Source: Coprobacillaceae bacterium (GTDB lineage Bacteria; Bacillota_I; Bacilli_A; Erysipelotrichales; Coprobacillaceae). From it: 32,000 bases of DNA. This document shows positions 1,851-29,857 of this stretch, piece after piece (within the stretch, counting starts at the first letter, position 1; each line of letters begins with the position of its first letter). The position numbers and the translations under genes are program-made. The stretch lies in the NCBI GenBank assembly GCA_963675515.1, contig OY776328.1, positions 2,490,001 through 2,522,000 of the forward strand, in the 5' to 3' direction. The notes under the pieces are model-generated. The model worked only from the letters and a program-made list of their open reading frames with translations. It ran no database searches and was not told the origin of the DNA.

Positions 1851-2011
1851 CGGCGGGGGACTCCTGGGTACTTAATATTTAGCTATTGGTTTCAATCGGC
1901 ATTGTATGTTTCCCATTGGTTGCTTATCCACCAGTCCAGATCGTTCAACACTACGTTTGAAAGTAATGGCGAAAGCACTCCTGCCCTGTGGTGTCCCACA
2001 CTGTGGGACAC

Positions 2012-2427
2012 CTACTCCTTGTTGTCCTTGATGCCGATATTCCAGAGTTGTTTGATTAACTTGGTATGATTGACATTGTCAAAGAATGATTCGATATCCA
2101 AATCAACAACATAGTGATTGTGCGTCATATTGGCGATAAAGCAACATCTTGACAAAGCATTATGGGTTGAGCGATTGGCTCTAAAACCATATGAATGCTT
2201 ATGAAACTTCGCTTCGCAGATTGGTTCAAGTATCTGTTTGAACATCTGTTGAATCAGTCTGTCATGCATCGTTGGTATTCCCAATGGTCGTAATTTTCCA
2301 TTAGGTTTAGGTATTTCTACTCTTCTTACCGTTTTTGGTTTATAGTCCAATAGCGATAGTCTAATATCCTGAATAAATTTCTCAACGTTTTCTATCTTGT
2401 AATCATCAATAGTGATACCGTCAGTAC
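2012..2427 (-). pseudogene. Group II intron RT, domains 1-4 piece
   Basis: Translation TDGITIDDYKIENVEKFIQDIRLSLLDYKPKTVRRVEIPKPNGKLRPLGIPTMHDRLIQQMFKQILEPICEAKFHKHSYGFRANRS...DLDIESFFDNVNH is classic RT motifs 1-3. It ends in a stop at the palindrome scar (1991-2011). Confidence 0.85.
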
Positions 2428-2503
2428 TGGATAGGTTACAATAAATTAGACAAGATTATAAGGACATGATAAAATCTTGTTAAATTTGTGGAGGATATTC
2501 AAA

Positions 2504-2797
2504 ATGACAAAACGCAGACCTAAACGTACTTACACCGATGAATTCAGAATCAAAATGGTTCAACTTTACAACAATGGGAAACCCAGAGCGGAAATAATCC
2601 GTGAATACGATTTGACAGCTTCAGCGTTCAATAAATGGGTTAAACGCTTCAATGACACGGGTTCGTTTACTGAAGCCGACAATCGATCAGATCATGACAA
2701 GGCGCTTATCAAGCTCCAAAAAGAAAACGAACGACTGAAGATGGAAAATGATATTTTAAAGCAAGCGGCGCTGATAATGGGACGAAAAGACAAGTAA
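2504..2797 (+). CDS. IS3-family transposase OrfA (HTH)
   Basis: MTKRRPKRTYTDEFRIKMVQLYNNGKPRAEIIREYDLTASAFNKWVKRF... followed by a leucine-zipper-like KLQKENERLKMENDILK. GGAGG lies 8 nt upstream of the ATG at 2504. Confidence 0.9.
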   Translation: MTKRRPKRTYTDEFRIKMVQLYNNGKPRAEIIREYDLTASAFNKWVKRFNDTGSFTEADNRSDHDKALIKLQKENERLKMENDILKQAALIMGRKDK

Positions 2798-3612
2798 TCT
2801 TTGCCAATAAACACAAATACTCTATCAGCGCTATGTGCAAAGTCTTGAAAATCTCTCGGGCAACTCTCTACTACAAACCCAAAGGGCGTAAAGTGGATTC
2901 GAAGCTTGAAGATGAAGTAATAAAATCATTCAAAAACAGCAAGAAGAATTATGGAACACGCAAGATAAAAGATGACTTGGATGATTTAAACATGGTTGCC
3001 AGCAGAAGAAAAATTGCTCAAATCATGGACAAATACGGCTTGATTAGTAAATACACCATCAAGCAACGACCAAAGCATTATGGCAAAGTAAATAATGACG
3101 ATATTGAAAATATGATCAATAGAAAATTCCAAGCAGAGCGGCCAATGCAATATTTAACCAGCGACTTGACCTACATCAAGGTGGCTGGAAAATGGAACTA
3201 TATTTGTCTGATAATTGATTTGTACAATCGTGAAATCGTTGGTAAATCTAGTGGTCAAAACAAAGACGCCAACTTGGTTATTAAGGCATTAAACGATATA
3301 AAAAGTGATCTCAGTGATGTCGAGATATTTCATTCAGACCGAGGATCGGAGTTCAAAAACGAGATGATTGATGGGATATTGGCATTGCATGGAATCAAGA
3401 GATCGTTGAGTGCCAAAGGAAAACCGATTGATAACGCGGTATCAGAATCAATGTATAAAATACTCAAAACAGAATTCGCATTCAATCGACAATTCCGCAG
3501 TATCGACGAATTGTCATTGGAACTGTATGATTATGTCAACTGGTTCAACAACAAAAGGAAGCATGGGAGCCTTAATTACAAAACACCCGTACAATACAGG
3601 CTGTCCTTATAA
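2752..3612 (+). CDS. IS3-family transposase OrfB (DDE/rve domain), expected to be made as an OrfAB fusion by -1 frameshifting
   Basis: The frame is open from 2752, in the -1 frame relative to orfA. DDE context: LTSDLTYI, FHSDRGSEF, NAVSESMYKILKTE. Confidence 0.9.
   Translation, partial: YFKASGADNGTKRQVIFANKHKYSISAMCKVLKISRATLYYKPKGRKVDSKLEDEVIKSFKNSKKNYGTRKIKDDLDDLNMVASRRKIAQIMDKYGLISKYTIKQRPKHYGKVNNDDIENMINRKFQAERPMQYLTSDLTYIKVAGKWNYICLIIDLYNREIVGKSSGQNKDANLVIKALNDIKSDLSDVEIFHSDRGSEFKNEMIDGILALHGIKRSLSAKGKPIDNAVSESMYKILKTEFAFNRQFRSIDELSLELYDYVNWFNNKRKHGSLNYKTPVQYRLSL
2755..2761 (+). promoter_or_regulatory. Candidate programmed -1 ribosomal frameshift heptamer T TTA AAG
   Basis: X XXY YYZ pattern in the orfA frame (att tta aag), located exactly where the orfB frame opens, 34 nt before the orfA stop. 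The mirror site in copy 2 is at 7746-7752. Confidence 0.6.
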
Positions 3613-3641
3613 AAATTGTCTAAAAAAGTGTTGACTATCCA

Positions 3642-3826
3642 GTACCTTTTGTGTGACTTCCGGTGTTGCTTTTGATGTTTCGATAGGCGAGGAGTATATT
3701 GTTCCTGGATATGACCAGATTATAAAGATCTATCCCGTAAGTATCATTGTTTAAACTCATTTGATACAACCAGTCAAAAGTTTCCTGCAAACTGTAATAT
3801 TCGTTGTTTCGTAATTCCGTGCTCAC
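3642..3826 (-). pseudogene. Group II intron RT/maturase, N-terminal piece (cut off by the IS3 insertion)
   Basis: Translation ...NILLAYRNIKSNTGSHTKGT is RT domain 0/1 of intron-encoded proteins. The frame continues at 2427 once IS3 and one GTAC copy are removed (...HTKGTDGITIDDYKIENVEKF...). Confidence 0.85.
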
Positions 3827-4522
3827 CGATGGATTATTCCTTTCATTTAGAACAATTGTTTCCCATCATCTTACCAGACCCTGTGAGCTTCATTTAACTG
3901 TAACTAATTTTTAAAGAACCAGACTTGGGGCTATCCCTCCACCATTTTTCGTGGCTTCATCGGTACTGTGCCCCTACTTTCACGAGAATAAAAACATTTC
4001 GTTTACACTTATAGTTACCGTCCCGATAACAGTCGTTTGATAGACGTTTCTCGCTTACAACGTTCCAAATATTCTAGCTTTACATTTATCCTTAGGTTCC
4101 TGCTATGAGCCTGATGAATTATACCCTCATCGTTGAGTATCTCGAATTTCATAGCAATGACTCTTACTTTTCGATATTCATCGTTGCGCACGCAACATAC
4201 TATCTTTCAATAGCACGATATTCTAGACCCGTACATTCGCAGTTTCGTCAGTCCTTACACGGACATTCTCACCATAGATAATTTATAGCGTCCCGGCCTA
4301 TCCTTTACCATATGATATATCACTTAGGTATTGTTCAGCCGACTTCACCTAGCTTCACACATGATTTTACTGTTATAACCTCATGCGTGTAGGAGTATCA
4401 GACTACTTGTTTCAGGCTAACATGACAGCCATCATTCCAAGTATTGAATATTCAGTTGTGATTTTCCAATTGGAAAATCCTCCCATTTCATGCCTAGGCA
4501 CTTATAGGGAAACGTTTCGCAC
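3827..4522 (-). ncRNA. Group II intron 5' ribozyme segment (domains I-III region)
   Basis: Has the consensus 5' GUGCG, has no long ORF, and sits directly upstream of the intron-encoded RT start (GTG at 3826). Confidence 0.65.
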
Positions 4523-4576
4523 CATGGCTAAAGTCACGAGTGTTCTCGACCAGTTAATAAAGTAAACATCACTTTT

Positions 4577-5197
4577 TCATTCGTAAATAAGATAAATATA
4601 AATTTCTGAACCATTTTCTTCGTTTATACCTTTGGCCAGCACTCTATCATTCCATTCGCCAAATGTGTTATAATTGTGGTATTTATTTACAGATAGGTCT
4701 AGACTAAACTCATAATCGCAAAAGTTAATTTCCTTTGAAAGACCATCTCTAGTTGCAACGGCGGATATTGATTTGTAATTATCACTTGACGAATAAATCG
4801 CAATGTCATTAGTCTCAGGTTCGATTAATAAAGTAATAGTGCCTCGATCACTTGTCTGTCGCCCCATTATTTTATTAAACATATTGAATACCTCGAAATT
4901 GTTAATGTGTAATGCATTGTTAATAATATAACTTCCGTAATAACTTCCCCACATATCATTGATCACAATTTCTTGATCATTCACAAACGAAACCATGTAT
5001 TTAATGCGACCAACATTATGCGTTTCATAATGGTAACTAACATATAAGGGATTCTCAGAATCTACCGAAATTTCTTCCAAAACAATTGTCTTGTGTTCAT
5101 CAAAATTCACAACATTAATAATATTAATAATAATCAATAACAAAGTAACAAGTGCCAGTACACACAAAAAAGAACTTTTAGCAACCCTTTCAATCAC
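4577..5197 (-). CDS. Hypothetical membrane-anchored protein (one N-terminal TM helix), no family recognised
   Basis: 206 aa, GTG start with GGAGGTG 10 nt upstream. The hydrophobic stretch FLCVLALVTLLLIIINIINVV is followed by an Asn/Tyr-rich soluble domain. Confidence 0.6.
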   Translation of the reverse strand: MIERVAKSSFLCVLALVTLLLIIINIINVVNFDEHKTIVLEEISVDSENPLYVSYHYETHNVGRIKYMVSFVNDQEIVINDMWGSYYGSYIINNALHINNFEVFNMFNKIMGRQTSDRGTITLLIEPETNDIAIYSSSDNYKSISAVATRDGLSKEINFCDYEFSLDLSVNKYHNYNTFGEWNDRVLAKGINEENGSEIYIYLIYE

Positions 5198-6234: not shown

Positions 6235-6865
6235 ATGGCAATAAAACTAAAACCGAAGAAAGATTCTTTAATAACTCTTACTAGAAAATATGCTAATGAC
6301 AATGATGAATGTGTGAAGTTCTTCTTCACTATCAAGTGGCCTGAAGGGTTCTACTGTGAAAAGTGCGGTTGTACGCATTACTACTTCATTGAAAGTAGAA
6401 AAGCTTATCAATGCAAGGAATGCAAACATCAGCACTATCTGCTAGCAGGTACCATATTCCAGGACACCAAGCTCGAACTTTACAAACTGATCTTAGGCAT
6501 GTATATTTTCTTTACCTCCAATAAAGGTGTTTCAGCAATAGAACTCGCAAGTGAACTCGACGTCAATTACAAAACAGCCTTACTTCTTGCCAGAAAATGT
6601 CGAATTTTGATGGCTCAAAGCTGTAGTGAAAAGATGCTCGATAGCTTGTTTTATGAAGCTGACGTCGCATATATTGGATCCAAGAGCAAAGAGAAGAATC
6701 GTCAAGGTTGTGCTACAGAGCAACAGCCTTTTTTGGTCGTACTTTCGACGGATGCAGAAAATCATTACCCAAAATACATCAAACTTCACCCTATTCCAAC
6801 CGACAATCAAATCCAGGTAAAAAATGTCATCTCGAAGAGCATCAAACTATCAAAGGATCGAAAAC
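6235..6865 (+). pseudogene. IS1595-family (ISXO2-like) transposase, N-terminal part with zinc ribbon
   Basis: FFFTIKWPEGFYCEKCGCTHYYFIESRKAYQCKECKHQHYLLAGTIFQDTKL is the characteristic transposase zinc-ribbon region. GAGGTG lies upstream of the ATG at 6235. The frame is cut at 6865 by IS3. Confidence 0.85.
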
Positions 6866-6894
6866 TGGATAGTCAACACTTTTTTAGACAATTT

Positions 6895-7755
6895 TTATAA
6901 GGACAGCCTGTATTGTACGGGTGTTTTGTAATTAAGGCTCCCATGCTTCCTTTTGTTGTTGAACCAGTTGACATAATCATACAGTTCCAATGACAATTCG
7001 TCGATACTGCGGAATTGTCGATTGAATGCGAATTCTGTTTTGAGTATTTTATACATTGATTCTGATACCGCGTTATCAATCGGTTTTCCTTTGGCACTCA
7101 ACGATCTCTTGATTCCATGCAATGCCAATATCCCATCAATCATCTCGTTTTTGAACTCCGATCCTCGGTCTGAATGAAATATCTCGACATCACTGAGATC
7201 ACTTTTTATATCGTTTAATGCCTTAATAACCAAGTTGGCGTCTTTGTTTTGACCACTAGATTTACCAACGATTTCACGATTGTACAAATCAATTATCAGA
7301 CAAATATAGTTCCATTTTCCAGCCACCTTGATGTAGGTCAAGTCGCTGGTTAAATATTGCATTGGCCGCTCTGCTTGGAATTTTCTATTGATCATATTTT
7401 CAATATCGTCATTATTTACTTTGCCATAATGCTTTGGTCGTTGCTTGATGGTGTATTTACTAATCAAGCCGTATTTGTCCATGATTTGAGCAATTTTTCT
7501 TCTGCTGGCAACCATGTTTAAATCATCCAAGTCATCTTTTATCTTGCGTGTTCCATAATTCTTCTTGCTGTTTTTGAATGATTTTATTACTTCATCTTCA
7601 AGCTTCGAATCCACTTTACGCCCTTTGGGTTTGTAGTAGAGAGTTGCCCGAGAGATTTTCAAGACTTTGCACATAGCGCTGATAGAGTATTTGTGTTTAT
7701 TGGCAAAGATTACTTGTCTTTTCGTCCCATTATCAGCGCCGCTTGCTTTAAAATA
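6895..7755 (-). CDS. IS3-family transposase OrfB (copy 2)
   Basis: Protein identical to 2752-3612. Confidence 0.9.
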   Translation of the reverse strand, partial: YFKASGADNGTKRQVIFANKHKYSISAMCKVLKISRATLYYKPKGRKVDSKLEDEVIKSFKNSKKNYGTRKIKDDLDDLNMVASRRKIAQIMDKYGLISKYTIKQRPKHYGKVNNDDIENMINRKFQAERPMQYLTSDLTYIKVAGKWNYICLIIDLYNREIVGKSSGQNKDANLVIKALNDIKSDLSDVEIFHSDRGSEFKNEMIDGILALHGIKRSLSAKGKPIDNAVSESMYKILKTEFAFNRQFRSIDELSLELYDYVNWFNNKRKHGSLNYKTPVQYRLSL

Positions 7756-8003
7756 TCATTTTCCATCTTCAGTCGTTCGTTTTCTTTTTGGAGCTTGATA
7801 AGCGCCTTGTCATGATCTGATCGATTGTCGGCTTCAGTAAACGAACCCGTGTCATTGAAGCGTTTAACCCATTTATTGAACGCTGAAGCTGTCAAATCGT
7901 ATTCACGGATTATTTCCGCTCTGGGTTTCCCATTGTTGTAAAGTTGAACCATTTTGATTCTGAATTCATCGGTGTAAGTACGTTTAGGTCTGCGTTTTGT
8001 CAT
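7710..8003 (-). CDS. IS3-family transposase OrfA (copy 2)
   Basis: Protein identical to 2504-2797. Confidence 0.9.
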   Translation of the reverse strand: MTKRRPKRTYTDEFRIKMVQLYNNGKPRAEIIREYDLTASAFNKWVKRFNDTGSFTEADNRSDHDKALIKLQKENERLKMENDILKQAALIMGRKDK

Positions 8004-8079
8004 TTTGAATATCCTCCACATATTTAACAAGATTTTATCATGTCCTTATAATCTTGTCTAATTTATTGTAACCTATCCA

Positions 8080-23505: not shown

Positions 23506-23571
23506 ATGGTCAAAATTATATCATTAATAATCAATTTTTTAAATATCATTCGTAGATTTTTGTACAAATTT
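23506..23571 (+). pseudogene. IS6-like transposase, first 22 codons (separated from the rest by the IS1202-like insertion)
   Basis: AAGGAGG lies 9 nt upstream of the ATG at 23506. MVKIISLIINFLNIIRRFLYKF continues in frame as ECFLLKHLPSDG... at 28472. Confidence 0.75.
23545..23571 (+). repeat. 27-bp direct repeat (target duplication), left copy
   Basis: ATCATTCGTAGATTTTTGTACAAATTT is identical to 28445-28471. The flanking bases differ on both sides. Confidence 0.9.
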
Positions 23572-23683
23572 TCTAGAACGAATATGATATTGTCTTAATG
23601 TAAGGAAGATGATTATGTCCCAAGGTCCTATATCAAATCCTGGAAATATGGTATCATAAACCTCTATGATTTTATGGAGGTAG

Positions 23684-24031
23684 ATGATGAGAAAGGTTGA
23701 TCTTAGAATGAACGAATTAGAAAAATATAAAGTAATCAAGAAACTGGTTGAAACCAACGGCAACAAGAAGCGAGCGGCTACGAGACTTAACTGTTCAACC
23801 AGGACAGTCAACCGGCTAATCTTGAAATATAAACAATTTGGTAAACAAGGCTTTGTCCATGGCAACCGCGGCAATCTACCGGCACATACTTTTGATCCCG
23901 AAACAAAGGCGATGATTATTGACTTGTATCTCGCTAAGTACACCGATGCCAATTTGGCTCATTTTGCCGAAATAGTCGAGGAGGAACTAAAGATAAAAGT
24001 TTCCGACACAACCATCAATAACTGGCTGAAG
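23684..24031 (+). pseudogene. IS1202/ISNCY-like transposase, N-terminal HTH part
   Basis: MMRKVDLRMNELEKYKVIKKLVETNGNKKRAATRLNCSTRTVNRLILKYKQFGKQGFVHGNRGNLPAH... The frame is broken after ...TTINNWLK by the inserted element. Confidence 0.8.
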
Positions 24032-24239
24032 TGTAGATAGCCTTTTTATTTGATTCAATATAACCATAATCTAATCATAATAAATAAAGGTCAATTCCAG
24101 ATAATTTGATGAATTTTTCTTCAAATTACTTGAGATTGACCTTTTACTTTGTTATTTTATTGGTAATAAATTAAAAGAAAGAAAAAATGAGAGACGCAAC
24201 CACCAAGCAGTTTCTCTCATTTGCCATATAGACAAGAAG

Positions 24240-24794
24240 ATGATAACGTATCACGGAGTCAAAATCAATAGTAATTTTATAAAAATTGATTCACAGGCCA
24301 AACTCCAGGCCTATTATGATGAATTGGTTTCCAATATTAATCGTTTTTCCCTGAGTTGCGCTGGTGACTGCCAGGGCAATTTCATAATTCATGGTTATTA
24401 TTTCCGAAGGGTTAAGCTACCTTTTGGATTTTTTAGCTTACGGATAATGCGGCTAAGATGTAAGGATTGCGGTAAAACCCACGCAATCCTTCTTTCCTGC
24501 TTGGTTCCATATTCAAGCATCCCGTTGGCAGTTCAGGTAGAAATTGTCAGAAGTAGAAATAATCGGGAAAGATTGAAAACTATTCTTGATCGAAACCCTG
24601 AACTGTTTGAATGTGATATTCATAGTATTGTCGTTAGATATGTAAATTACTGGCTGCAACGATTGTTATCGTCGAGGACTGATCTAAATGAAATTAACTT
24701 TCTTGTTGAAAACTGTTTTTCAAATTATTTGATGCAGTTCATGCAATGTCGAAATACCATAAATATCTTGTATACCGTCAACCACATAGGATGA
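24240..24794 (+). CDS. Hypothetical protein with CxxC-containing region; first gene of the transposon
   Basis: 184 aa. ...SLSCAGDCQGNFIIHGYYFRRVKLPFGFFSLRIMRLRCKDCGKTHAILLSCLVPYSSIP... Weak Shine-Dalgarno. Possibly related to DUF6431-type proteins, but that is from memory only. Confidence 0.55.
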   Translation: MITYHGVKINSNFIKIDSQAKLQAYYDELVSNINRFSLSCAGDCQGNFIIHGYYFRRVKLPFGFFSLRIMRLRCKDCGKTHAILLSCLVPYSSIPLAVQVEIVRSRNNRERLKTILDRNPELFECDIHSIVVRYVNYWLQRLLSSRTDLNEINFLVENCFSNYLMQFMQCRNTINILYTVNHIG

Positions 24795-24842
24795 GTTAAT
24801 TAATCGACTTGAATAGTCTATATTGGCTGAGGGAGGTATTAT

Positions 24843-26090
24843 ATGGATAAGAAAGAACAAGAATACGTTGCATTGATGCGCCATCGGATCATTCATGACA
24901 TTATTACTGGAAATTATGATTCTTCATGGTCCAAGAATCAGGCAATAACGGAAGCTACCAAAAAAGTCTATAAGAGTTTCGATAACCGTGACTTCACTGT
25001 CTCGAGCAGCACCATCTCCAGGTGGATTGCTGCTTATGAAGAAAAAGGTTTTGATGGATTGATTCCCCAAAAGCGGAGTGATTGTGGCAAATCAAGAAGA
25101 TTGGATGATGACATCGTTGAAACAATCAAATACTATAAGACAACCTATCCGAGGTTGCCAGCCACGGTCATCTACGGCAAGTTGATTGAAAAGGGAATAA
25201 TCAAGAAAACTGATGTTTCCCTGTCTACTATCAACCGATGTGTCAATCAGATAAAGTCAGAAATGCGGCTGTCAAACAAGAAAGACATGCGCCGCTACGA
25301 AGTACCCCATATCAATATGATTTGGGCCGGCGACAGTTCGGTCGGTCCTTACATTACTATTAACGGCAAGAAGAACCGAACATACATGATTGCCCTAATA
25401 GATGATGCTTCAAGAATGATCGTCCATCTTGATTTGTATTTAAATGACAACACAGTCAATTTGATGGATACCATGAAAAGTTCGGTCACCAAATACGGAG
25501 TACCTGAGATGTTCAGGTTTGACAATGGCTCCAATTATCGAAATCACCAGATTAAGATGATTGCAGCACGAATCAATTCAACCATCAGCTACTGCAAACC
25601 CTATTCTCCTGAAGGAAAAAGTAAGATAGAAAGGGTGTTTCGGACGATTAAAGATCAATTCTTCGCCCAAATCAACATCAAAGATTACACAAACAATCTG
25701 GCGGGTTTGAAGCAGGATTTAAGCCAGTTCATCAATGATTACAATAACAAGGTTCATTCCTCTTTGAATGGTATGACGCCTCATCAGCGTTTTTTCCAGG
25801 AAAGCAACCTGATCAAAAGGCTTGATGATGATGTTATCGACAATACTTTCCTATTCGAAGTGGAGAGGACTGTCAGTGCTGATTCGGTAATCAAGATAGA
25901 TAATCGGGAATATGAGATTGATTATATCTATTCTGGTGAACGGCATATGTTCCGATACACTCCGGACTTGGAGAAAGTCTATATTGTAAACAAGAATACC
26001 GGTGAACTGGAACGGATTCATTTACTCGATAAAAACGCCAATTCAAAAGTAAAAAGAGTGCAGCCTAAATTATGTGGAGGAGAAGATTAA
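24843..26090 (+). CDS. DDE (rve/integrase-core) transposase of the MuA/TnsB/TniA type
   Basis: 415 aa. GGGAGG Shine-Dalgarno. N-terminal HTH-like region (SSSTISRWIAAYEEKGFDGLIPQKRSD). Catalytic blocks are MIWAGDSS, FRFDNGSNY and GKSKIERVFRTIKDQF. C-terminal beta-rich domain. Confidence 0.85.
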   Translation: MDKKEQEYVALMRHRIIHDIITGNYDSSWSKNQAITEATKKVYKSFDNRDFTVSSSTISRWIAAYEEKGFDGLIPQKRSDCGKSRRLDDDIVETIKYYKTTYPRLPATVIYGKLIEKGIIKKTDVSLSTINRCVNQIKSEMRLSNKKDMRRYEVPHINMIWAGDSSVGPYITINGKKNRTYMIALIDDASRMIVHLDLYLNDNTVNLMDTMKSSVTKYGVPEMFRFDNGSNYRNHQIKMIAARINSTISYCKPYSPEGKSKIERVFRTIKDQFFAQINIKDYTNNLAGLKQDLSQFINDYNNKVHSSLNGMTPHQRFFQESNLIKRLDDDVIDNTFLFEVERTVSADSVIKIDNREYEIDYIYSGERHMFRYTPDLEKVYIVNKNTGELERIHLLDKNANSKVKRVQPKLCGGED

Positions 26091-26893
26091 TGGAAAAATA
26101 TTGGACCAGATACGGATTGGAATTCAACCCGTTTATCAAGAACTCAAAGAATTTATTTATTGAAACCAGTGAATACCAGGAATTGAAAGTGCGACTTAAC
26201 AGCCTTTTTGAAATCAAGGGATTCGGACTAATAGTCGGGGAACCCGGTCATGGCAAGACAACCATGATCAGGAACTATATCAAAACACTACCCAAATCGG
26301 CTTACAAGATAATTTACTTGTCGATGTCGACACTGACAGTCAAGGAATTCTATATGCAACTGGCTGAGTCGCTAGATCTGACTCCTCGTTATCGCAAGAA
26401 TGATCTGTTCAGGGAAATTCAATCAGCCATAAACCAGTTGATTTACGAAAAAAGGATTACTCCGGTATTTATCTTTGATGAATGTAATTACATGAATAAC
26501 GCCATCCTAAATGATTTGAAGATGATCTTCAATTTTGATATGGATTCAAAGGATCATGCGGTAGTCTTGATGGTCGGATTACCGACAATAACCAGGAACC
26601 TGAAATTGACCGCTCATGAACCACTGCGTCAGCGAATGATTATCAATTATAAACTGGAGCCGTTAAACAAAACTGAAAGTCTTGCTTATATCAAAGACAA
26701 GCTCCAAGGAGGAAAAACAATTCAAGAAGTGTTCAATGAAAATGCCATCGAGGCAATCATCAACGCATCCAACGGTACCTGTCGGGTGATTGATCGGATA
26801 TGCGACAGGGCAATGTTTATCGGAGCAATCAGAAAAACAGAAGTGATTGATTCCGATTTAATACTAGAAACAATCGAAGAGGTAGTAATTTGA
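26090..26893 (+). CDS. AAA+ ATPase of the TniB/MuB/ExeA (AAA_22) type
   Basis: 267 aa from MEKYWTRYGLEFNPF. The ATG overlaps the transposase stop (TAATG). Walker A GEPGHGKT, Walker B PVFIFDECN. ...VVLMVGLP... Confidence 0.85.
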   Translation: MEKYWTRYGLEFNPFIKNSKNLFIETSEYQELKVRLNSLFEIKGFGLIVGEPGHGKTTMIRNYIKTLPKSAYKIIYLSMSTLTVKEFYMQLAESLDLTPRYRKNDLFREIQSAINQLIYEKRITPVFIFDECNYMNNAILNDLKMIFNFDMDSKDHAVVLMVGLPTITRNLKLTAHEPLRQRMIINYKLEPLNKTESLAYIKDKLQGGKTIQEVFNENAIEAIINASNGTCRVIDRICDRAMFIGAIRKTEVIDSDLILETIEEVVI

Positions 26894-27198
26894 AAATCGA
26901 ATACTTCTGCAACTATGATGAAAAAACATGGGCCAACGAGATAGTGATCGTATCGCAGAACCCAGATAAGTGTGAATTTCAGCTAAGATATGATGGAAAT
27001 GAAATAGAAGTGATAATAGGTAAATCGGCCAAAGGAAACTGGATTTGCATCCCGTTGATGAAGCTGGGACTGGAACTATCATATTTCAAAGACAAATTTT
27101 GGAACAAGTCAGCGTTATCGCGCGAGATAGATCCAATCAGCAGCGAGGCTATATCCCAAGCCATCTACAAATTGAACGAAGCAAGGATAATCGTCTAA
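26890..27198 (+). CDS. Hypothetical 102-aa protein; last gene of the transposon
   Basis: The TTG start overlaps the ATPase stop (ATTTGA), so the two appear translationally coupled. No motif recognised. Confidence 0.45.
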   Translation: MKIEYFCNYDEKTWANEIVIVSQNPDKCEFQLRYDGNEIEVIIGKSAKGNWICIPLMKLGLELSYFKDKFWNKSALSREIDPISSEAISQAIYKLNEARIIV

Positions 27199-27352
27199 AC
27201 AGGCGATTATTTTATTTATCTTCAAAAACACCATATCAAATAAACTGAATATCCTATTCAAATAATTTGAACAGCATCTAAAAAAGGACCCAAAGATGGT
27301 CCATATAATTTGAAGAATCATACATCAAATAAATTGACTAGCTACACTGAAG

Positions 27353-28411
27353 CAAGAATACGTTTTGTCTCCAAGGGCCAGAAGAAAGACCAAGAAGGCC
27401 ATGAGAATTGCTTTAGCGGCCAAATTGGATAAAACCAAATCCGCAAAAGCTGCCAATAAATTAAAGGAATCTATAGCCGTTATTGAAAGCAACAAGGCTC
27501 ATCCTCGCCGTCCACGGAGTAAATACTTCGGTGAGATGATCCAGATGGATGCAAGCAGCTTTGAATGGGTCCCTGGTGAGATTTGGCATCTCCACCTGGC
27601 CGTCGATGATTCAACCAGTAAAGTAGTTGGAGCTTATTTCGACACCCAGGAAACGTTAAAGGGCTATTATAATGTATTCCATCAGATATTGACTGATTAT
27701 GGCATCCCGGCTATGTTTTACACCGACAGGCGGACAGTTTTCGAATACAAAAGAAAAAACACCGCATTCGATGACGAAGATACCTTCACGCAATTTTCTT
27801 ACGCCTGCCATCAATTGGGTGTTGAAATCAAAACAACTAGCGTAGCACAAGCCAAAGGCCGTGTAGAGAGAATGAACCAAACATTTCAATCACGATTACC
27901 TGTCGACCTGCGCCGCGCTAATATAACGAAAATAGAGGATGCCAACGAGTTTCTGAAGTCCTACCTAAAAAAACTTAATGACAAATTCGCTCTACGACTA
28001 AATAGTACCAAAACAGTTTTCGAAAAACAACCATCTTTGGAAAAAATCAACCAGACGCTCGCTGTCATTTCACCAAGAAAAATCGATGGCGGACATTGCA
28101 TAAAATACAAGAATGCCTACTATATACCTAAAACAGATAAAGATGTAAGGGTATTCTTTAAAAACAAGACCGATAGTATGGTTATCGAAGCCTACGATGG
28201 AAATCTCTATGTGAATATCTTGGATAATCTGTATTTACTCGAGAACGTGCCTGATCGGCAAATGTATTCGAAGAACTTTGATGAAGAACAGGCTACCAAG
28301 CCAAAGAAGAAAAAGCAATATATACCGCCATTGAGTCATCCATGGAAACAAGCTTCCTATATGAATTACTTGGCAAAACAAAAGCACCGTGAAAACAGTG
28401 CTAATGTTTAA
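27353..28411 (+). pseudogene. IS1202/ISNCY-like transposase, C-terminal DDE part
   Basis: QEYVLSPRARRKTKK...HPRRPRSKYFGEMIQMDASSFEW...WHLHLAVDDSTSKVVGAYF...MFYTDRRTVFEY...SVAQAKGRVERMNQTFQSRL shows D, D and E blocks. In frame with 23684-24031 after excision (468 aa restored). Confidence 0.8.
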
Positions 28412-28444
28412 CAATTTTTAAGACATTATCAATTTCGCTTGACA

Positions 28445-28471
28445 ATCATTCGTAGATTTTTGTACAAATTT
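28445..28471 (+). repeat. 27-bp direct repeat (target duplication), right copy
   Basis: Identical to 23545-23571. Confidence 0.9.
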
Positions 28472-29857
28472 GAGTGTTTCCTGCTAAAGCATCTTCCCAG
28501 TGATGGTACGGATTCAAGTAAGAGTGAACCATATCGTCGTTTCAAAATGCATCCGCTTCCTGTTATTGAACCGCAATTAATCCCCATCCCATTTCAACAG
28601 GCCAGGGATGAGTATGAATCCAAACATAAACGACCTTTGAAACCGGTGTTTAGACATGAAGGCAAAGACTATCCATCTGAAGATACTGTTTGCCCACATT
28701 GCGGCGCCACTCATGAATACCTGACTTTCAACAACGGAATCAAGAAATCCCAAGTTAAGTGCAAAGTTTGTGATACGACTTTCTCACTTAATAAGAGTTA
28801 TTCGCAACAATTGATCCGCAAGTGTCCTCACTGCGGCCGCAAGTTGACGTTGATCAAATCACGTGATGGTTTTGATGTCTATAAATGTCAAAACTCTAGA
28901 TGTTCTCACTATAAGAGTGAGTTGAAGAAACTAACAAAAGAAGATAAAAAGAAATACAAGGTAAATCCTTCTAAATTCTCGCTTCACTACATAACCCGCG
29001 TCTTCGATGCTTCAATCGAAAAACTTGAAAGCATCCAGCTGAAAATAGCACCATCAAAAGTTGATCTCTCCAGAATCCACAATTCTAAGCATGTTTTAGG
29101 CCTAGCGTTGACGTATTACGTTAATTATGGCCTGTCTCTTAGAAAAACCGCTTTGGTTTTATACGAGATTCACGATATCAAAATATCCCATCAAACAATA
29201 GCTAACTACGCTCAGGCAGCCAGCCATCTCCTATTTCCGTGGATGGATAACTACAAGCACGATTTGAACTCGTATCATTGTGGAGACGAAACATACGTCA
29301 AAGTTTTAGGAAAAAAAGCCTATGTATTTTTCATGTGCGATGTTAGGAAAAAAATAATAACTTCGTATCGAATTTTCATGAAAAGAGATACCTTTGCGGC
29401 TATAAATGCCTTTTATTCAGTCATGAGAAAATTCAAAAAGTTACCGACTGACTTTGAGATCGTTGTTGACGGAAATCCGATATATAAAGCCGCTCAACAG
29501 TATTTTCAAATCAAAAGAGTATTTTTTAAAGTGACTCAAGTAATTGGACTTACGAATGATGATCCTGTATCAAAAGAACATCGCCCTGCCAAACAAATAA
29601 TAGAGCGTTTGAATAGAACATTTGGAGAAACCTACGCGATCAAAAATGGCTTCAACTCATTGGATGGCGCAAATGATTTCATGTGTCTGTTCACAACATA
29701 TTTCAATTTCCTAAGAAATCACACCTCCCTGGGATACAAGCCACCAGTTGAATTGGATTGTTTGAAGAAAACTCATAACATGCCAAACAAGTGGAACATC
29801 CTCATGGAAGAAGCGCTTAAGTATTACCGACAAAACGAACACGAAACTCTATTATGA
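28445..29857 (+). pseudogene. IS6-like DDE transposase, main body with N-terminal double zinc-ribbon extension
   Basis: CPHCGATHEY...CKVCDTTF and CPHCGRKLTL...CQNSRCSHY, then DDE blocks HCGDETYVKVLGKKAYVFFMCD, EIVVDGNPIYKAA and QIIERLNRTFGETY. The TTG start at 28439 in the ORF track lies inside the IS1202-like end and is an artefact. Confidence 0.8.

Follow-up and report, generated by a model that had tools for sequence, protein, structure and literature searches.

The window analysed here, a 32,000-nucleotide stretch of the genome of a Coprobacillaceae bacterium (contig OY776328.1, positions 2,490,001 to 2,522,000 of the forward strand), contains a 3315-bp element with TGT...ACA ends at positions 24032-27346. 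It is very likely to be an intact, autonomous and cargo-less insertion sequence (IS) that encodes a core of a DUF6431 protein, a DDE transposase and an AAA+ ATPase, together with an optional DUF6618 protein, and that would transpose with the assistance of its ATPase in a manner similar to Mu, Tn552 and IS21. Its ends are precise and bordered by 6-bp duplications, its relatives occur in multiple copies, its core is co-inherited across phyla and its catalytic motifs are all intact. The element is real and intact, and it is probably active in transposition.

The element is flanked by two identical copies of CTGAAG (24026-24031 and 27347-27352), and its terminal inverted repeats, TGTAGATAGCCTTTTTATTTGAT on the plus strand at the left end (24032-24054) and TGTAGCTAGTCAATTTATTTGAT as the reverse complement at the right end (27324-27346, minus strand), agree at 19 of 23 positions. 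Searched with a degenerate pattern of this terminus, the 32-kb window contained two matches, at the two ends of the element, with none expected from 100 shuffles. Removal of the element together with one CTGAAG restored an uninterrupted open reading frame (ORF) of 469 codons reading ...TTINNWLKQEYVLSPRARRK..., the 469-aa product of which scored 398.8 bits on the ISNCY/IS1202 transposase model (cutoff 250), in agreement with an earlier note on this DNA, which had proposed that the deletion would rejoin the frame of a host IS transposase. The same note had described four coupled plus-strand ORFs; these are indeed all co-oriented (24240-24794, 24843-26090, 26090-26893 and 26890-27198), with start and stop codons overlapping in TAATG between the transposase and ATPase genes and in ATTTGA between the ATPase gene and orf4. 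No TnsA, resolvase or TniQ domain was detected in Pfam scans, as had been claimed, and TniQ was absent from all 64 of the orf1 homologues. The G+C content is 37.6% for the element, 41.3% for the whole window and 42.2% for positions 1-23000.

A search for relatives of the transposase, with one genome per species, yielded 293 loci, 80 of which were kept. The complete chromosome of a Coprobacillaceae metagenome-assembled genome (MAG; OY780959.1) carries nine copies of the element (L001-L009) that are 88-91% identical in DNA to the window element along its entire length. The nine copies share the positions of their TGT...ACA ends, the type of left terminus and an identical right terminal repeat. 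Eight of them are flanked by distinct 6-bp duplications (GTTGAT, GTTAAC, CTATAT, TGATGA, GTAATA, ATATTC, GAGAGG and CGATCT) and the ninth by a 5-bp duplication, CTAAG. More distant members with about 50% protein identity (L023, L066 and L068) also display TGT...ACA ends and 6-bp duplications. In Butyrivibrio sp. AC2005, which contains a 3016-bp three-gene version, the contigs stop exactly at the element ends, and a CTATAT duplication could be reassembled from two contig ends. Taken together, the duplication is 6 bp at 13 of 14 insertion sites, among which no target-site consensus and no targeting of attachment or res sites was evident. Many metagenome homologues reside on contigs of 3.0-3.4 kb that start and end exactly at TGT and ACA, which is usually how collapsed multi-copy repeats are assembled, and a compact size of 3.0-3.3 kb is kept throughout the family. 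Hence the intact, cargo-less element bounded by a 6-bp duplication, as previously postulated, was borne out both here and in its multi-copy relatives, including on the point by which the earlier note had made its finding stand or fall, namely whether other copies share the termini and the duplication: both are shared. No circle, circularly permuted or tandem junctions were found among the 80 loci, a megablast search of PLSDB plasmids with the whole element gave no match, and the exact sequences of the window transposase and ATPase are not on record in public assemblies.

Two variants of the element coexist in OY780959.1. L001 and L003 share only 66-77% identity in the first ~400 bp, a stretch made up of the left end plus the 5' portion of orf1, and are 100% identical in the remainder; their left termini begin with TGTAGC and TGTCGC, respectively, and both variants are present in multiple copies with their own duplications. 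The confinement of the difference to this segment suggests that the left end and the N-terminus of the orf1 product travel together, either by module swapping or by co-variation of orf1 with the left end.

The transposase (24843-26090, plus strand; 415 aa) comprises an N-terminal helix-turn-helix (HTH) region, an RNase-H core, a C-terminal beta-barrel and a conserved tail, with rve and HTH_32 as its Pfam domains. Residues D164, D227 and E263, which form a DD(35)E triad, are invariant, as is K270 at +7 after the glutamate, and K404, R405, L410 and G413 are conserved in the tail. In Foldseek searches, the AlphaFold model (predicted local distance difference test, pLDDT, 85) matched the type V-K TnsB (E 5e-22), IstA (2e-17), Tn7 TnsB and MuA (1e-14), with TnsB, IstA and MuA ranking above retroviral integrases. 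Sequence profiles gave TnsB (4e-10) and IstA (4e-8), as well as the PHROG Mu-type transposase family 310 (E 5e-53). The initial description of the protein as a MuA/TnsB-type DDE transposase is therefore supported at the level of fold and profile, although the best curated IS model in NCBIfam is IS481 (NF033577), on which it scored 169 bits, below the cutoff of 224. This model covers residues 49-317 only, and the beta-barrel formed by residues 338-394 in the AlphaFold model lies beyond its end. The next IS models were IS3 (89 bits), ISNCY/IS1202 (85 bits) and IS21 (59.5 bits).

The AAA+ ATPase (26090-26893, plus strand; 267 aa), whose start codon overlaps the transposase stop codon, possesses Walker A (G53-x-G55-K56-T57) and Walker B (D130-E131) motifs that are invariant in the alignment, and an ExeA-like YGLxxNPF motif at the N-terminus. 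It matched Pfam AAA_22 with 72.8 bits and PHROG 296, 'DNA transposition protein', with E 2e-25, and its closest solved relative is MuB (E 1.4e-6). Similarity to the ATPase of a Tn552-type element from Staphylococcus is full-length but weak (~24% identity, E ~2e-4). IstB_IS21 was absent among the Pfam matches listed for this protein (25 of 28), where generic AAA families appeared instead; no IstB chain was present among its PDB sequence matches, and a tblastn search of 50,697 phage records gave no match. The proposal of a TniB/MuB-type ATPase is thus supported only loosely, and the match to TniB stays below its cutoff.

The product of orf1 (24240-24794, plus strand; 184 aa), one of the two ORFs left unassigned in the earlier note, could be identified as a DUF6431 protein (Pfam, 32 bits; cutoff 26.6) with a zinc ribbon that is conserved across the family and, after it, a helical region resembling an HTH. 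In alignments of 20 and 64 homologues, residues C40, H51, C74, C77 and H81 are invariant, as is the MIT at the start, and the C-terminus has an FMQ motif. The AlphaFold model (pLDDT 83) shows a zinc ribbon of three hairpins and four helices behind it. Just past the ribbon, the homologues from Cupriavidus and Rhodococcus match HTH_28, HTH_23 and HTH_Tnp_ISL3, and the ribbon itself shows a weak similarity to ISH6 transposases at their N-terminus. We read this protein as a putative sequence-specific DNA-binding protein. A sequence search alone gave only three close homologues, and a profile was needed to find more; the exhaustive profile search returned 1,904 clusters at 50% identity, and the top matches listed are nearly all stand-alone proteins of ~170-220 aa. 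The same profile found no match among PDB sequences. A relationship of orf1 to TniQ was considered and rejected, given that no Pfam TniQ match was obtained for the window protein (E up to 0.1) or for the 64 homologues; a match on an E. coli plasmid (H43), considered as a source of a Tn402 TniQ, proved not to be a Tn402 module.

The second unassigned ORF, orf4 (26890-27198, plus strand; 102 aa), which begins at a TTG codon overlapping the ATPase stop codon, was resolved as DUF6618 (Pfam, 33.4 bits; cutoff 27), with the conserved motif G..GN(Y/F).CIP....G.EL....D.FWN. In Clostridium estertheticum, the gene at the same position is annotated as 'DUF6618 family protein'. This gene was detected in a minority of the copies, in 23 of the 80 loci only, and is treated here as an optional accessory gene outside the core.

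By comparison, orf1 was found upstream of the transposase gene in 73 of the 80 loci, the transposase gene in all 80 and the ATPase gene in 77, in the same order, which holds for practically all loci of sufficient length; the stop codon of the transposase gene and the start codon of the ATPase gene overlap or abut across the family. This DUF6431-DDE-ATPase trio is conserved across Clostridia with ~50% identity and is also present in Bacillales, in Cupriavidus and probably in Rhodococcus. Plasmid annotations show the trio in Geobacillus thermodenitrificans, Metabacillus and Cupriavidus necator, and in Rhodococcus with a weaker orf1 match, and plasmid pCF007-A of C. estertheticum carries all four genes. 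The Geobacillus transposase is named 'IS481 family transposase' by NCBI and scored 255 bits on the IS481 model, the Metabacillus transposase 221 and the window transposase 169, so that the family straddles the cutoff of 224. In an all-against-all BLAST comparison, trio-type transposases scored 118-400 bits among themselves, 58-92 bits against a Tn552-like transposase, 22-77 bits against two classical IS481 transposases (301 and 353 aa) and less than 50 bits against IS1202 and IS3; the ATPases followed the same clustering pattern. The clustering indicates that the trio is a coherent lineage, roughly midway between IS481 and Tn552 and inside neither. The window element has all the features that define it, namely genes for DUF6431, a ~415-aa DDE transposase and a ~267-aa AAA_22 ATPase, arranged in this order between TGT...ACA ends, and a 6-bp duplication.

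Comparison with named systems showed that the element departs from each of IS481, IS21, Tn552, Tn5053, Tn7 and Mu in at least one defining feature. Classical IS481 elements are ~1-1.3 kb long and contain a single transposase gene. The window element shares with them the top curated transposase model, the DD(35)E triad with a lysine at +7, the TGT...ACA ends and a short duplication that is mostly 6 bp, which is the norm for IS481 (PMC10045372). It differs in its length of 3.3 kb, its four genes, the extra beta-barrel, the ATPase and the zinc-ribbon protein, in the sub-cutoff score of its transposase (169 against 224) and in the BLAST scores of 56-76 bits against classical members. IS21 is likewise a compact IS with coupled transposase and ATPase genes in that order and multiple end repeats, and the fold of IstA is the second-best structural match. 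However, the window transposase reached only its 59.5 bits on the IS21 model NF033546 (cutoff 160), its ATPase is of the AAA_22/ExeA/MuB type rather than the DnaC-like IstB of IS21, and IS21 has no third gene encoding a zinc-ribbon protein.

Tn552-like elements share with the window element a DDE transposase with a Mu-type C-terminal barrel and a ~270-aa AAA+ ATPase encoded directly downstream, as well as TGT ends in the ISNCY examples, and the transposases are homologous over the full length (~27% identity, E ~1e-17 for a Staphylococcus pair). The duplications reported for Tn552 are 6-7 bp. Unlike the window element, which has no recombinase domain, no cargo and no further ORF, Tn552-type elements encode a serine resolvase beside the transposase, together with cargo, as do ISArsp14/ISBli29; DUF6431 takes the position of the resolvase in the window element, and trio-type proteins form a separate cluster. 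Plasmid p14AME19-3 of Staphylococcus shinii encodes, at 1882-4697 of the locus, a resolvase, a 480-aa transposase and a 271-aa ATPase in this order. With Tn5053/Tn402 and with Tn7 and CRISPR-associated transposons (CAST), the element has in common TnsB as the best structural match of its transposase, TGT/ACA ends with several internal binding sites, and a division into three components, namely the transposase, the AAA+ ATPase and a small DNA-binding protein that binds zinc. It differs from Tn5053/Tn402 in an ATPase that stays below the TniB cutoff and in lacking TniQ and TniR/resolvase, from Tn7 in lacking the TnsA endonuclease and the TniQ/TnsD selector, and from both in having no cargo and a 6-bp instead of a 5-bp duplication. 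The PHROG matches of the transposase (5e-53) and of the ATPase to the B protein (2e-25), MuB as the closest solved ATPase and the fold match to MuA relate the element to Mu, which contrasts with it in phage genes, absent from these 3.3 kb, and in its 5-bp duplication; the head-to-head copies 0.5 kb apart described below argue against an immunity like that of Mu.

A transposition pathway may be outlined by homology with Mu, Tn552, Tn7 and IS21, including what is established for the action of AAA+ helpers, such as the solved ATPase-activated strand transfer of IS21 (PMC11208146). The N-terminal HTH domains of the transposase would bind repeated sites in each end and pair the ends, after which the enzyme would expose the 3'-OH at the terminal CA and join both ends to the target with a 6-bp stagger. 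The ATPase would assemble on target DNA with ATP, and may act on the beta-barrel and conserved C-terminal tail of the transposase to recruit and activate it, with ATP hydrolysis afterwards resetting the complex. The zinc-ribbon/HTH protein would be the third, sequence-specific DNA-binding component, acting as a regulator or else as a positive factor, in the latter case on the left end or on the target. Since no TnsA-like nuclease or resolvase is encoded, the element would either follow a copy-type pathway, such as the copy-out/paste-in route presumed for IS481 and IS3, or form cointegrates for the host to resolve.

Three other explanations were weighed. It is unlikely that the element is an IS481-family IS with three passenger genes, in which the DDE transposase alone transposes and the ATPase, DUF6431 and DUF6618 genes are unrelated cargo. 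Such a view would accommodate IS481 as the top curated IS model (169 bits), the Geobacillus relative that passes its cutoff (255 against 224) and is named accordingly by NCBI, and the TGT ends and 6-bp duplications typical of IS481 (PMC10045372), and IS481 members with passenger genes do exist, for example ISArsp12 and TnRErm46. Passengers, however, vary between relatives, whereas here one and the same pair of partners accompanies the transposase from Clostridia to Betaproteobacteria, with the gene order and the overlap of stop and start codons preserved, and these partners are of the Mu, Tn552 and IS21 type. Moreover, the transposase carries the C-terminal beta-barrel through which TnsB, MuA and IstA act on their ATPases (PMC11208146), a domain outside the IS481 model, and trio-type transposases are no nearer to classical IS481 than to Tn552. 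Least credible by far is the view that the element derives by decay from a larger Tn552-like transposon or Mu-like prophage and has lost its self-mobility. The homology of the transposase and ATPase to Tn552-type and Mu-type pairs speaks for such an origin, but the perfect duplication, the matching ends and the four intact ORFs argue against decay, as do the identical boundaries of nine near-identical copies at different sites and the compact size of 3.0-3.3 kb kept family-wide; phage genes are absent, and the ATPase was unmatched in the phage collection.

A further alternative concerns the role of the DUF6431 protein only, which may be a negative regulator similar to InsA of IS1 or OrfA of IS3, binding the ends or the promoter. 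We regard this as a serious possibility, albeit not the favoured one. A small protein with a zinc ribbon and an HTH-like region resembles the DNA-binding N-terminus of ISH6/ISL3 transposases, orf1 is the first gene and lies just downstream of a palindrome overlapping a promoter-like site, and the two variants in the Coprobacillaceae MAG differ jointly in the left end and the 5' portion of orf1, with the remainder identical. Repression and activation are not distinguished by any of the data, but the near-universal retention of orf1 across phyla fits an essential factor at least equally well, and in Tn552-type elements the equivalent position is occupied by a resolvase, which hints at a role in DNA processing rather than a purely regulatory one.

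Several observations weigh against the reading of the element as an active, ATPase-assisted IS with a DUF6431 core. The best full-length model of the ATPase is the secretion-associated, ExeA-like TIGR03015 (115 bits), and its Pfam TniB match (PF05621) of 19.4 bits lies below the cutoff of 22.4. The model of the orf1 product gave no significant match in Foldseek searches of PDB and BFVD, the best being the ISCth4 transposase with E 0.27, and no TniQ signal was seen in its sequence, nor a TniQ chain among its structural matches. The proposed roles of the ATPase and of the orf1 product thus derive from homology and conserved gene linkage, and the window contains a single copy, so that activity in this host is likewise an inference. 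In addition, two copies in L005 (1-6503), one of each left-end variant, are arranged head to head with their left ends ~0.5 kb apart, which argues against a strong target immunity of the Mu/Tn7 style.

The trio layout is very widespread in gut and soil bacteria and bears only machine annotation, under the labels 'DDE-type integrase' and 'AAA family ATPase' in addition to two DUFs. No named IS or transposon family with this layout was found in the literature searched, a search that did not extend to ISfinder or TnCentral. A cassette of 'DUF6431 - DDE integrase - AAA ATPase', present in 15 copies and unnamed, has been reported to mediate a 63-kb deletion in Clostridium sp. JS66 (bioRxiv 10.64898/2026.08.16.744336), DDE and DUF6431 genes are listed without comment in a table of a paper on Ruminococcus gnavus, and ISsaga counts eight 'IS481' copies in G. 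kaustophilus. This count, together with the Geobacillus relative that passes the IS481 cutoff, makes it quite possible that trio members are already filed under IS481 in ISfinder. We would therefore put forward only tentatively, as a proposal more doubtful than not, that the trio is a distinct and formally undescribed IS family of Firmicutes, Betaproteobacteria and probably Actinobacteria, in which transposition would depend on the zinc-ribbon/HTH protein as an obligatory third subunit, an unrelated fold doing the job of TniQ/TnsD or of a resolvase in Tn5053, Tn7 or Tn552. If true, no three-component, ATPase-gated DDE transposition machine smaller than this one of ~3.0 kb would be known.

ATPase-gated DDE transposons, such as Mu, Tn7/CAST and IS21, are the best-understood models of regulated integration, and programmable insertion tools are built on them. 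ATPase-assisted DDE transposition as encountered here has familiar parts and a familiar logic and leaves current understanding uncontradicted, and the trio offers a very compact three-protein system in which the coupling between a transposase and its AAA+ helper may be compared. With thousands of transposase homologues and 9-15 copies in single genomes, its abundance and its universally linked zinc-ribbon partner merit a proper description. If the trio were recognised as a single mobile element, the annotation of IS in gut Clostridia would improve, and repeat-mediated deletions, for example the 63-kb loss in Clostridium sp. JS66, would be explained.

The subterminal regions of the window element contain candidate binding sites and expression signals. 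Several internal binding sites per end are typical of Mu, Tn7, Tn552 and IS21. The right subterminal region (27235-27323, minus strand) contains two copies of the terminal site, TTCAGTTTATTTGAT at 27235-27249 and TTCAAATTATTTGAA at 27257-27271 (read inward from the right end), which match the 15-nt inner part of the terminal repeat at 13 and 12 of 15 positions, respectively, in the same orientation as the terminal repeat and within 110 bp of the right end, as well as an inward-facing terminator-like hairpin (27286-27302). The left subterminal region (24055-24239, plus strand) has a second site-like repeat, TTCAAATTACTTGAG, at 24120-24134 with 11 of 15 positions matching the terminal site, a palindrome with 28-nt arms (24086-24144) and, overlapping the palindrome upstream of orf1, a promoter-like site identified by consensus match (24130-24158; TTGAGA-17-TATTTT, with TG before it). 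We infer that these may serve as binding sites and as a promoter. A 13-pair stem followed by a T-rich tail at 27184-27213 (plus strand) resembles a terminator at the end of the operon by consensus match only. The promoter-like site, this hairpin after orf4 and the hairpin in the right end are anatomically sensible and statistically weak. In the Geobacillus relative, a different motif is repeated in both ends, behind TGTAAA termini. A promoter formed at the junction of abutted ends was also considered, based on a TTGACT motif 7 nt from the right end, but its spacing to -10-like hexamers was unfit and the motif is also absent in the Butyrivibrio relative, and the idea was dropped.

The element is the latest arrival in a three-deep stack of nested elements, as originally suggested, and this order follows from the excision reconstructions. 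Its host element (23572-28444, excluding the insertion) is an IS of the IS1202 group whose ends read TCT at the left and TGT at the right. A perfect direct repeat of 27 bp borders this IS at 23545-23571 and 28445-28471, which fits the duplications of 27-28 bp that have been reported in the IS1202 subgroup. In the outermost position of the stack, a gene (28439-29857 together with sequence upstream of 23545) encodes a zinc-finger-rich DDE protein, for which the best model was IS6 with a sub-cutoff score of 82.9 bits. When the IS1202-type element and one 27-bp repeat are removed, the outermost ORF extends upstream to 491 codons, confirming the three-deep nesting. Elsewhere in the window, two 100%-identical inverted copies of a 1216-bp IS3-family element (2428-3643 and 6864-8079), each with a 106-aa OrfA and a 259-aa OrfB, bracket a 3.2-kb segment in the arrangement of a composite transposon, and a 300-nt direct repeat with 95% identity is located at 778-1077 and 1271-1570, with starts 493 bp apart.

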